Position numbers: made by a program | Origin: a virus | Lineage: Duplodnaviria > Heunggongvirae > Uroviricota > Caudoviricetes | IMG/VR virus record: IMGVR_UViG_2651869782_000025 | DNA length: 64,000 bases | Reading direction: 5' to 3' (one strand) | Part shown: positions 9,001 to 12,000 of the stretch, in pieces | How the letters are laid out: each line of letters begins with the position of its first letter | How positions within the stretch are numbered: position 1 is the stretch's first letter

Positions 9001-12000
9001 GGCGGTGGGATGTCAAAACCGGTTGCCATGCTCCAAAGTGGCCGCAGTGTGGTTGTATTTATGGACCGCAGCGAAAAGTGGCCTGGAGAATCCTTGATGC
9101 CCAATACTTCGGAGTGGCACAACGACGCCGACGCGTGTTTGTTGTCGCAAGCGCTCGAACAGACCTCGATCCCGCAACGGTACTTTTTGAGTTCGAAGGC
9201 GTGCGCCGGGATATTGCGCCGAGCAGAGGCGAGGGGAAGGAAACTACCAGATATACTTCAAACATCGCTATCAGATCTTGCGATGATACAAACATAGTTG
9301 CCATGGCACATGGGCAAGGAGGGGCTGAGATAAAAACCGATAATTCGGCACCAACTTTGACATGTAACCATGAAGCACCAATTGTATTGCTCGGCGACGG
9401 TAGAATGCGCCGTCTTACCCCTATCGAATGTGAAAGGCTACAAGGTTTTCCTGATGGACATACATTGATCCCTACGGAAAAGCGTAAAAAAGTTTCTTCA
9501 GATGAACTGGCATATCTGCGCAATCACTATCCAGATTTAAGCGAAGAAGAGGCCGCGATGCTTGCAGCTGACGGACCGCGTTACAAAGCGATCGGCAATA
9601 GTATGGCGATACCAGTAATGCGCTGGATTGGCGAGCGGATTACCAAGGCTGCATGTCGGCAGAATGAAGGGCGTGAAACAAAAGAGCGAAAAGTTAAACC
9701 AGCGGCAGAATTCGAACGGTCCATATTCAAATGGGCTGGTGGAAAATTTGGTGTTCTGGAACAAATCTTTCGCTATTTGCCAGAAGGGAAGCGCCTGATC
9801 GAACCTTTTGTCGGTGGCGGAGCTGTCTTCACGAATGCCGGATACCAGGAAAATCTGCTAAATGATGTGAATGCTGACCTGATTAACTTTTACAAGACTC
9901 TGCAACGCGAGGCGCATTCACTTATCACACTGGCGCATCGGTTTTTCCAGGACTACAACACACAGGAAGGATACCTGGCAGTACGGAATGCGTTTAACAA
10001 ACAAGTCTATGATGATTTACATCGCGCAGCGGCGTTTTTGTTCCTGAACCGACATTGTTTTAACGGATTGACGCGTTACAACCAGGCCGGTGAATTCAAT
10101 GTCGGTTATGGGAAGTATAAAACTCCGTATTTCCCATTACAGGAGATGGAAGCCTTCCTCGGTGCGGAAGGGCGTTCTGAGTTTGTATGTGGTGATTGAA
10201 GCTGCCGGAGAAGGAGATGTCATTTTTTGCGATCCGCCATATGAACCGCTTCCAAATACAGAGGGATTCACGAACTATTCCGGTCATGACTTTAAGTTTG
10301 AAGAGCAAAAACGCCTGGTGTCTCTGTTGACGGATGCTCATCGCCGAGGTGCAAAGGTTCTCATTACTAACAGTGGCGCGCCAAACATCAGAGAGCTTTA
10401 TCATGACAGTGGCTTCAGAGTGGAACCTCTCTTTGCCAGACGTTCTGTGTCTTGTAAGGGGGACACTCGAGGTGTAGCTCATGACGTTTTAGGTATATTG
10501 CTCTAATAAATTTATTAGTGTAATATCGCTTCAATGAATCGTTATTTATAGAGCGATTTAGCTGTTAGCCGCGACAGGCGCGGCGGTAAGCATGGCTGGG
10601 CCTAGTCCTCCCAGACAAACCACCGAGTTGCCAGGTTGACCATGCGCCTAAGTGGTAACACCGAAGTGCGTTACGAGCTTCCAGTTTGCCCATCTTCGGG
10701 TGGGCGTTTTTTTCAGGGTTTTCGTCATGGTTAGCGACTTTGCGGCGGTTTAGAAACTGACCATTAAAGTAAATGCAAACGATGATCTGATGATGGTAGC
10801 GGCCTAAGAAGCCAGACGCCACGGGGTATGAGTCGTCCCCCGTCAAAAAATCGACCGCAGAGTGTCCCCGTCTGTGTATTAGGGAACGGGGAGGCATAAC
10901 AAGGTAAGGGCGCTGGTTCGATTAACCAGATGAGCGAGAAGGGGCCATCTTTTGGTCAGTGCCCTTACCTGTTACGTCCTTTTTCATTCAGCGTAACAGC
11001 CATTGCTTAATGGCATCCTGGGAGAATTTCTTGTAACGGGTATATCCCGTCATGCTGAAGGCGCTAATCACGCTGGAAGCCAGGGTTGTGCATCCCCTGT
11101 TACCGAATTGCAGCCAGGGCGCGGTGCGCCGAAAAGCATACGGAGGTGGAAGCCCTCGCCGGAGACGTACCCGGCAAGTGATGGTGTAGCTCAGCGGTTA
11201 GAGCGGTTGACTGTTAATCAACGGGTCGATGGTTCAAATCCATCCACCATCGCCAATGCCGGTTTAGCTCAGTTGGTAGAGCGCCTGCCTTGTAAGCAGG
11301 ATGTCAGCGGTTCGAGTCCGTTAATCGGCACCAGCACAACAGGTAAGGGTATTTTGCGACGTCGGAGATCGCCGAGCTTGGCAGAGGGTTCGAATCCCTA
11401 CGAAGTACCCTTACCGTTGTGAGGAAGCGCAGCTCTTTGAAGCAACCAGAAGATAAGCATCTGGCTTCACAACATAAACCGCAGGAACGACCAATAAACG
11501 GTAGTCCGTATGGAGAACACCCCGTTGAGGAAGAGGCCTGGCCGGAACCGTAACCGGCACTATAACGTTGAGAACACTGGCGTAACGGGGTCATATCCCA
11601 ATCTACGAATAAATGTTGCGTTGCAGCGTGACAACCAGTGTTCTCAACATTGTGGTGAAAGCGCGTTGCTGGCGCGCAAGTCCGCCCTATGGCAACGAGG
11701 CGGCGTAGTAAATATCGATGCCTTAGTCATCAAGCGCACTGACCGGCCTTATGGGCTATGAACAAAAAGAGGCGCAGTCGGAGATCAGCACCGACCACCA
11801 CAATCACTGGAGAGTAGGGAGCATGGTGCTCAAGCGGTCTTGAAATCCGTCCCGTCGCGCAAGCGATGATGGTTCGATTCCATTACTCTCCGCCAGCGCA
11901 ACGTTAAGAGTATTTGGCTAATTAAGCGAATGCCGGAAGCAGAACCGGATCACCAAATGCGTACAGGCGTCATCGCCGCCCAGCCAGCCAAATGCTCTTA

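Follow-up and report, generated by a model that had tools for sequence, protein, structure and literature searches.

In the tRNA cluster of phage T4, species 1 RNA is a substrate of RNase III. The late leader of lambda reportedly contains RNase III sites too (so the title of Daniels et al. in 1988, as cited in PMC7547250). Together with the rrn stalks, such processing stems take the form of a near-perfect duplex of ~20 bp that closes a structured RNA. A second described system is the (8/4) tRNA-Ser class, which Mukai et al. (2017, Nucleic Acids Research 45:2776; PMC5389517) report in bacteriophages, and whose members were met there among the false positives of a search for selenocysteine tRNA (tRNA-Sec).

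A member of the second system and hairpins that recall the first stand in the ban operon leader of a P1-like phage-plasmid, IMG/VR record IMGVR_UViG_2651869782_000025, of which we analysed one stretch of 64,000 nt (the window). Three elements, (a), (b) and (c), are placed there between the tRNA-Thr gene trnT and tciA, in a long and largely untranslated transcript. An earlier note had listed them as three separate oddities and suggested pseudo-tRNAs or non-canonical functional RNAs. The latter suggestion is supported for all three, (c) being a tRNA backed by covariation and (a) and (b) being hairpins conserved at the RNA level. Unrelated they are not: (a) and (b) are paralogues of one hairpin family, of which two more copies lie in the same leader. 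As an explanation of the whole leader, to which we give an even chance, we propose a polycistronic RNA array in which an 8/4 tRNA-Ser is combined with family hairpins that would act as double-stranded RNA (dsRNA) punctuation.

A hairpin family conserved in its arms

Element (a), here also U2 (11335..11421, + strand), is a hairpin of the form CACAAC-A-GGTAAGGGTATTTTG ... CGAAGTACCCTTACC-GTTGTG. It had been reported as a 74-nt unit at 11350-11423; the length is right, but the bounding sequences GGTAAGGGTA and TACCCTTACC delimit 11342-11415, 8 nt further left, and the stem continues outwards to CACAAC at 11335-11340 and GTTGTG at 11416-11421. Its interior consists of a D-arm-like hairpin (GCGA/UCGC) and a T-arm-like hairpin, the latter with the previously noticed motif AGGGTTCGAATCCCT at 11385-11399. 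The fold is more stable than expected (z = -4.0), none of 200 shuffles being equally good, and the sequence GGTAAGGG occurs five times in the window against 1.05 expected, a number reached in 0 of 100 shuffles. Element (b), or I2 (inverted repeat I2; 11558..11657, +), is a diverged hairpin of the family with a branched interior. The perfect 14-nt inverted repeat described for it is present, whereas the loop of 60 nt is not: the perfect arms, 11567-11580 and 11635-11648, are 54 nt apart, and they are part of an imperfect repeat of 23 nt (11558-11580/11635-11657; 87% complementary). Its predicted fold has -47.3 kcal/mol (z = -6.9). The two hairpins of the same family that the earlier note did not contain are U1 (10898..10974, +; inverted repeat I5, arms AGGTAAGGGCGCTG / CAGTGCCCTTACCT, fold z = -4.86), upstream of tRNA-Asn, and U3 (11894..12011, +; inverted repeat I1, fold z = -4.55), which begins at the CCA of tRNA-Ser.

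Family loci in viral contigs were retrieved with a pattern derived from the 5' arm. This arm reads CACAAC-A-GGTAAGAGCATT and the 3' arm A(R)TGCTCTT(W)CC-GTTGTG, with GGTAAGAGCATT pairing to ARTGCTCTTWCC, so that the stem of ~19-24 bp comprises a 6-bp outer helix, a bulged A and an inner helix of 12-13 bp, often with one U·U. The arms are conserved across the family units and the interiors are unrelated, varying from ~30 to 170 nt and falling into at least ~16 unrelated types by our count. Several further interior types carry T-arm-like hairpins, according to our reading of the unit sequences. Because of these, and because (a) has both T-arm-like and D-arm-like hairpins, part of the interior content of the family is, to judge from sequence, tRNA-derived. 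Neither (a) nor (b) is itself a pseudo-tRNA or a decayed tRNA: the former suggestion fails for (b) and survives for (a) solely in the sense that its interior bears perfect T-arm-like and D-arm-like hairpins.

A covariance model, R1, was built from 27 units, with all four window types (U1, U2, I2 and U3) excluded from the seed, and was run over the whole window without filters. Four significant sites were obtained, namely U2 (55.4 bits, E = 6e-14), U1 (34.9 bits, E = 5.7e-08), U3 (28.2 bits, E = 5.3e-06) and I2 (23.9 bits, E = 1e-4), and beyond these four leader units the next, unrelated site in the 64 kb reached 12 bits (E = 0.24). By this result (a) and (b) are members of one hairpin family, which within the window occurs in this leader alone. 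Covariance models, which the earlier note had named as a check, are thus divided on (a) and (b): Rfam rejects both, yielding nothing credible on either even at permissive E-values over 10600-13100 (ALIL and plastid noise only), while the purpose-built model recovers both. Over 100 loci, R1 gave 287 hits, canonical units scoring ~55-78 bits in sense and ~25-35 bits in antisense orientation. Element (b) scored 23.9 bits on the + strand versus 14.6 on the - strand; for U1 the - strand gave 34.9 bits versus 24.9 on the + strand.

In order to describe the stem itself, cells were counted in 71 unique units, each taken on its better-scoring strand, and an independent count based on regular expressions was also made. 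The stem cells comprised 1160 Watson-Crick pairs, 127 G·U, 5 A·C and 55 other mismatches, 40 of which represent the one conserved U·U. Full compensatory changes were seen at several stem pairs (for example A-U 49, G-C 13, G·U 8), and the stems run 1-5 bp into each unit's own interior. In members lying outside the search pattern both arms change about equally and in step (43 vs 37 differences), and a divergent copy of (a) in contig L043 retains its stem through double changes. Among the arm variants of (b) (n = 15, inspected by eye), G·U arises in the sense strand where T replaces C opposite G and where G replaces A opposite T. Since A·C is what G·U becomes when read on the opposite strand, the ratio of 127 to 5 indicates that it is the sense strand that folds; wherever the direction of transcription is readable (P1, lambda and the Salmonella phage), the units are sense-oriented. 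We consider it very probable, from this pattern of substitution, that the hairpins of (a) and (b) are selected RNA structures formed in the sense transcript.

Outside P1-like elements, the family is found in lambda, in SSU5-like plasmids, in lambdoid prophage-like contigs and in a Salmonella phage. In lambda the late leader carries one unit, directly past tR' and ~320 nt ahead of S; next after the unit comes a 65-nt module that shares 98.5% identity with the U3 interior. The Salmonella phage, ST1UNAM, has two units, one of them enclosing the 65-nt module; its array lies between tail genes on the opposite strand and is flanked, by eye, by TTGACA-17-TAGATT, which resembles a promoter, and by a hairpin plus T run resembling a terminator. 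One 74-nt unit type matches 460 of 5426 complete E. coli genomes, in prophages and plasmids, and no annotation lies under the match in the 12 E. coli records listed; a search of E. coli K-12 prophage Qin yielded no unit of the family. Units often start 2-6 nt past an intrinsic terminator or 1 nt past the CCA of a tRNA, as in the window, where the CCA of tRNA-Thr stops 1 nt short of the U2 stem; in some units the 3' outer arm overlaps the 5' end of a tRNA. Rfam has no entry for the family, nor does any record inspected annotate it, those of P1 and lambda included.

Two further structures adjoin the family. The 65-nt module (AAUUAAGCGAAUGCCGGAAGCAGAACCGG...GGCGUCAUCGCCGCC; window 11920-11984, lambda locus L130 1201-1265, phage phita32 locus L009 ~1610-1675) is not in Rfam either; it is ~88% identical in rV5-like phages, and its second hairpin has undergone a compensatory change. 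The V hairpin (GUUGUGAGG...CUUCACAAC; 11416..11473, +) has its GTTGTG in common with the 3' arm of U2. SSU5-like and lambdoid contigs retain the V hairpin, with stem changes from A-U to G-C and from G·U to U·G; it holds a conserved CCAGA-AGAUAAGCA-UCUGG hairpin and looks like a stripped-down tRNA.

A serine tRNA of the 8/4 type

Element (c) (11809..11895, +) had been described as a type II tRNA-like sequence with a Ser-UGA-like anticodon arm, a long variable arm, a CCA end and a minimal D-arm, and ARAGORN calls a tRNA-Ser(tga) over precisely this interval. The Rfam tRNA model RF00005 lists no match at 11809-11895, either at its gathering threshold (29 bits) or at E up to 10; the match kept there for the tRNA clan is tRNA-Sec (RF01852), with 42 bits against a gathering score of 47. 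Homologues of (c) score 41-45 bits against the tRNA-Sec model, and such near-threshold behaviour recurs in D6-type P1-like plasmids, in SSU5-like plasmids of E. coli and Klebsiella, and in rV5-like lytic phages, in which the homologue is located within tRNA clusters. Records of D6 and of rV5-like phages annotate the homologue as tRNA-Ser.

A pattern scan of viral contigs returned ~100 phage tRNA-Ser(UGA), from which 36 with the same compact D-arm were chosen and 31 were aligned. In these 31 diverse phage homologues, 96.5% of the cells at paired positions are paired, compared with 76.5% in shuffles, and in 18 of the 23 pairs both partners have changed; the fold of (c) itself has z = -2.9 against shuffles. 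Informative for the architecture is column 86, the nucleotide after the T-stem. It covaries with column 8 (AU 20, GC 6, UG 2, UA 1; 9 double changes), whereas in the alternative pair, 70-86, column 70 is always G, no double change occurs and 7 cells are unpaired. Because column 86 covaries with column 8 and not with column 70, the branch of (c) is an 8-bp acceptor stem plus a 4-bp T-stem, 8/4 and not 7/5. The D-hairpin, GAGC(A)/(U)GCUC, has a stem of 4-5 bp and a loop of 3-5 nt that keeps GG, all four D-stem pairs showing double changes and being paired in 99% of cases. The variable arm consists of a 5-bp stem and a GCAA loop (GNRA type in the family), with compensatory changes in the Klebsiella and rV5-like copies, and the molecule further has a G73 discriminator, an encoded CCA and the anticodon UGA. 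A long variable arm and G73 are identity elements of seryl-tRNA synthetase.

The alignment also contains a pairing beyond the cloverleaf arms. In this family of 8/4 tRNA-Ser, the dinucleotide that follows the acceptor stem is paired to the one following the anticodon stem (columns 9-45, GC 24 and CG 5; columns 10-44, CG 17 and GC 12), which makes a covarying 2-bp helix that encloses the D-hairpin and the anticodon arm.

Two other assignments of (c) were considered and rejected. A canonical tRNA would be expected to reach 29 bits with RF00005, has a D-loop of 8-11 nt rather than 3-5, and branches 7/5, against the covariation; a tRNA-Sec would be expected above 47 bits, with the anticodon UCA and not UGA and a branch of 13 bp and not 12. 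What (c) does resemble is the 8/4 tRNA-Ser/allo-tRNA group (PMC5389517), with which it shares the 8-bp acceptor, the 4-bp T-stem, the long variable arm, G73, the compact Sec-like D-arm, the near-threshold tRNA-Sec score and the occurrence in phage tRNA clusters. Its near-match to the Rfam tRNA-Sec model agrees with the route by which Mukai et al. discovered the class. On these sequence features (c) is assigned to the known 8/4 tRNA-Ser class as a new member. The family differs in the 2-bp helix, of which we found no description.

Three observations count against (c) as a functional tRNA. It is not reported by RF00005; the D6 record remarks on the homologue "AA not called by tRNAscan-SE"; and a U31·U39 mismatch is unique to the window copy, 29 of the 31 sequences having U-A at this place, so that the window copy might be weakened by it. 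Even so, (c) is apparently a working, if non-canonical, serine tRNA, and the host seryl-tRNA synthetase probably charges it. The codons UCA, ACA and AUA are used in the open reading frames (ORFs) of the window at 12.6, 13.9 and 12.1 per 1000, more often than in E. coli, and are matched by the phage tRNAs Ser(UGA), Thr(UGU) and Ile(CAU). A role in codon supply fits, because these codons are frequent and each has its phage tRNA; (c) would accordingly supply the decoding of UCA.

The 5' leader of this tRNA contains a small hairpin, GTCGGAGATCAGCACCGAC (11777..11795, +; direct repeat D7), which resembles the U2 interior and whose motif is also found ahead of family units at other loci. In phage phita32, downstream of the 8/4 tRNA-Ser, ARAGORN reports a tRNA of 99 nt at L009 1690-1788, its type undetermined and its anticodon (atcc) four bases long, with 35.5 bits against the Rfam tRNA model; it may be a further irregular tRNA of rV5-like phages.

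Hairpins as proposed punctuation of a polycistronic RNA, and competing explanations

The region 10600-13100 matches phage P1 at 96% (megablast), with further matches to SJ46, P7, D6 and many phage-plasmids. The P1 record has the leader of its C1-controlled ban operon at the homologous position, with the order Pban/Op72, a "dicF-like region", trnA (Asn), trnT (Thr), plp and upl on the opposite strand, tciA-B-C, trnI and ban. A scan of 10400-13300 found no sigma-70-like promoter, and its sole terminator was the dicF-like one at 10687-10706; the lack of an internal sigma-70-like promoter fits co-transcription of the array. In such an untranslated polycistron of tRNAs and non-coding RNAs (ncRNAs), the family stems would serve as double-stranded punctuation. 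A dsRNA endonuclease, with RNase III as the obvious candidate, would cut the stems; alternatively, the stems would block exonucleases or stabilise the transcript. In either case the tRNAs and small structured RNAs would be separated from each other and from the downstream tciA-ban mRNA.

Punctuation is the simplest proposal because a duplex of about two turns closes assorted structured RNAs and stands at tRNA boundaries or past terminators. By our count both elements have the dsRNA of about two turns that RNase III takes as substrate, (a) with ~19-24 bp and (b) with 23 positions that are 87% complementary. Like the processing stems of rrn, the lambda late leader and T4 species 1, the family duplexes stand in an untranslated polycistron with tRNAs, and the lambda member lies in the late leader. 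They differ in that unrelated phages share one stem sequence around RNAs that vary, in the conserved bulged A and U·U, and in that cleavage is here a prediction. Processing by RNase III, or processing at all, is a possibility that we put forward tentatively, at somewhat under an even chance.

Several points speak against it. The cleavage is predicted from sequence and structure, and the 5' arm looks more conserved than it is, since the loci were retrieved with a pattern made from it. Cutting by RNase III would not demand nearly so high a conservation of the stem sequence, which may reflect recent horizontal spread or another recogniser. Furthermore, the global minimum free energy fold of lambda prefers GUUGUGCUG/CAGCACAAC around the 65-nt module over the outer stem of the unit. 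In both lambda and P1, GTTGTG can pair upstream, closing the unit, or with a downstream CACAAC, in the 65-nt module or the V hairpin, so that the hairpins may compete with neighbouring structures.

A more elaborate view, which we regard as unlikely though not far-fetched, brings in a tmRNA-tag-like frame of 10 codons in the same leader and RNA array, GCAAACGATGATCTGATGATGGTAGCGGCCTAA, which reads ANDDLMMVAA and then a stop (10775..10807, +; context 10714-10860). Here the leader would belong to a mobile "RNA island" of P1-like, lambdoid, SSU5-like and other enterobacterial phages, made of hairpin scaffold, tmRNA-like message and split-tmRNA mimic. The conserved-stem hairpins would be a cassette scaffold for expressing and excising diverse small structured RNAs from one transcript; the island would include a phage tmRNA-like message that keeps an ANDxxxxxAA tag of 10 codons; (a)-like units could be the source of the tRNA-like half in a split tmRNA mimic of the permuted type; and host ribosome rescue and protein tagging would thereby be redirected or subverted. 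The tag of E. coli tmRNA is ANDENYALAA. The frame is kept in 8 peptide variants across divergent phage types despite divergent nucleotides, with ANDDVVLMAA, ANDDLMLMAA, ANDEQFLAVA, ANDNQYLAVA and ANEEVYLAVA in lambdoid, SSU5-like and other contigs. By our reading it has no in-frame ATG, GTG or TTG past the upstream stop, and has UA at -5/-4, as in tmRNA; the frame for ANDNQYLAVA is preceded by CTG, so that conservation does not extend to the alternative ATG frame. In contig L043 the tag region comes right after a copy of (a). On the other hand, the match to the permuted tmRNA model is weak, the Rfam permuted, alpha and beta tmRNA models giving 14-27 bits at the element, below their gathering scores. 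ARAGORN calls no tmRNA there, similarity to E. coli ssrA is not above that of shuffled controls, and a tRNA-like domain for the tag-like RNA was not found with ARAGORN, the Rfam tmRNA models, ssrA alignment or RNAalifold.

It is improbable that (a) and (b) are functionless debris of tRNA genes, or of recombination in a tRNA-gene hot spot, turned into hairpins by complementary flanks. Much in the locus invites such an explanation: the perfect T-arm sequence GGGTTCGAATCCC in (a) and the T-arm-like hairpins that we read in several other interior types, the outer CACAAC/GTTGTG that resembles the two strands of an acceptor stem, a V hairpin like a degraded tRNA, the patchwork of short duplications in the region, and an array content that differs among P1, D6, SJ46 and the window. 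Debris, however, would not be expected to keep its pairing through compensatory and G·U changes, with the excess of G·U over A·C given above, nor to extend its stems into each unit's own interior or alter both arms in step in divergent members. Nor does it explain an architecture that is constant in lambda, P1-like and SSU5-like elements and a Salmonella phage whose array has an apparent promoter and terminator of its own.

The same asymmetry of G·U over A·C bears on the idea, which we find just as improbable, that the hairpins act on DNA, as boundaries of cassette exchange (attC-like sites or linkers for homologous recombination) or as ends resembling those of miniature inverted-repeat transposable elements (MITEs). 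Conserved arms around unrelated interiors fit this idea, and mosaic breakpoints do fall at or beside the arms: P1 and the window diverge over 11663-11990, an interval running from just past I2 to the 3' arm of U3, and contig L006 has an extra unit-plus-module inserted at GTTGTGATGAA. Like integron attC sites, whose R boxes end in AAC and begin with GTT, the family is an imperfect inverted repeat with AAC/GTT outer boxes, an extrahelical bulged base, a variable centre and strand-specific folding. Unlike in attC, the better-folding strand is the transcribed one, as the G·U excess argues, and the units are sense-oriented wherever their direction is readable. The R-box consensus RYYYAAC/GTTRRRY is not matched by eye, CACAAC/GTTGTG breaking the R/Y pattern; no common recombinase is evident across such different phages, although no scan for integrases was made; and a MITE would have a conserved interior, whereas those of the family are unrelated.

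Antitermination of the rrn type is a less probable alternative again. It would take the 3' arm as a boxA-like UGCUCUUU followed by a boxC-like, GU-rich GUUGUGGUG, acting with NusB/NusE in escape from Rho. The canonical arm, UGCUCUUU-CC-GUUGUGGUG, stands after a variable hairpin at the head of untranslated transcripts, past promoters or terminators, as rrn and lambda nut signals do; the rrn order is boxB hairpin, boxA and boxC, the last being alternating GU 3' of boxA (PMC6614797). UGCUCUUU matches 8 of 9 positions of rrn boxA, UGCUCUUUA, and the outer 3' GTTGTG hardly varies, its 5' partner drifting to G·U. In the family, by contrast, the boxA-like strand is base-paired and its pairing is under selection, and divergent members (UGCGCUUCC, UGAUCUUAC, CGCCGUUUC) drop boxA yet keep the stem. 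In (a) and (b) themselves the corresponding sequences, UACCCUUAC and UGUUCUCAA, match boxA at just 6 of 9 positions, and TGCTCTTW occurs in the window at chance level (7 vs 5.2 expected).

That the region codes for proteins on the - strand, its RNA-like features being incidental, is very improbable: plp and upl are annotated over the homologous stretch of P1, but the window ORF is cut to 96 amino acids (125 in P1) and has a C-terminus antisense to tRNA-Thr, the 17 variants show 56/45/68 substitutions over codon positions 1/2/3 and 52 indel columns, and no gene lies under the match in any of the 60 plasmid records listed. The two annotations (window 11304-11681, -; P1 locus L001 1203-1772), which overlap tRNA-Thr and the hairpins, are probably spurious by this pattern.

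Two known classes of small RNA were also compared. E. coli, the usual host of P1, is not known to have Ro/Rsr. With its long bulged basal stem, T-arm-like and D-arm-like hairpins and no anticodon arm, (a) is reminiscent of YrlA-type Y RNAs, but Rfam gives a single, weak YrlA match in the region, which covers tRNA-Asn and tRNA-Thr and not (a), and the arm order differs by eye. The anti-sRNAs of lambdoid moron sites (Tree et al. 2014) were set aside, as they differ in being short primary transcripts with promoters of their own. Literature searches on the arm sequence, the tag peptide and the P1 ban-operon tRNA returned nothing relevant.

Neighbouring features and significance

The two canonical tRNAs upstream of (a) are tRNA-Asn(GUU) (11180..11255, +; trnA in the P1 annotation) and tRNA-Thr(UGU) (11258..11333, +; trnT), both called by ARAGORN and scoring 74.5 and 72.9 bits, respectively, with the Rfam tRNA model. 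The ban leader is homologous to the dicF-dicB leader of E. coli prophage Qin (window 12005-12125, +; Qin locus L132 19263-19484). As this homology flanks dicF on both sides, the whole tRNA/hairpin array looks like an insertion between the dicF-like RNA and the 5' untranslated region of tciA. Directly upstream of tciA, at 12005-12125 (+), there is a partial match to STnc100 (37.8 bits against a threshold of 47).

Elsewhere in the window, Rfam matches comprise C4 antisense RNA and isrK, besides three canonical tRNAs. C4 antisense RNA has two loci, 39233-39443 and 60670-60876 (+), one after isrK and the other after an a1/b1 target element, which implies two immunity or antirepressor-type control regions within 64 kb. 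The dmt methyltransferase region (8502-10506, +) consists of two overlapping ORFs, 8502-10199 and 10090-10506, in place of the single coding sequence of P1 (66412-68676), and may represent a frameshift or a variant gene structure.

The family of (a) and (b) is best filed, provisionally, as a new variant among the structured processing elements of stable-RNA polycistrons. P1 and lambda are among the best-studied genomes, and yet the family has remained unannotated in both, masked in P1 by the probably spurious plp and upl. Recognising the family would bring the untranslated tRNA/ncRNA arrays of many enterobacterial phages and phage-plasmids under one grammar; it would predict sites of RNA processing, and hence the true ends of phage tRNAs and small RNAs, and would offer a natural scaffold for expressing structured RNAs. 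The tag-like frame, if functional, would be a new phage route to ribosome rescue. Finally, the phage-plasmids in which tRNAs of the 8/4 type circulate, P1-like and SSU5-like ones of E. coli, Salmonella and Klebsiella, are clinically common, and standard tRNA models under-call these tRNAs there.

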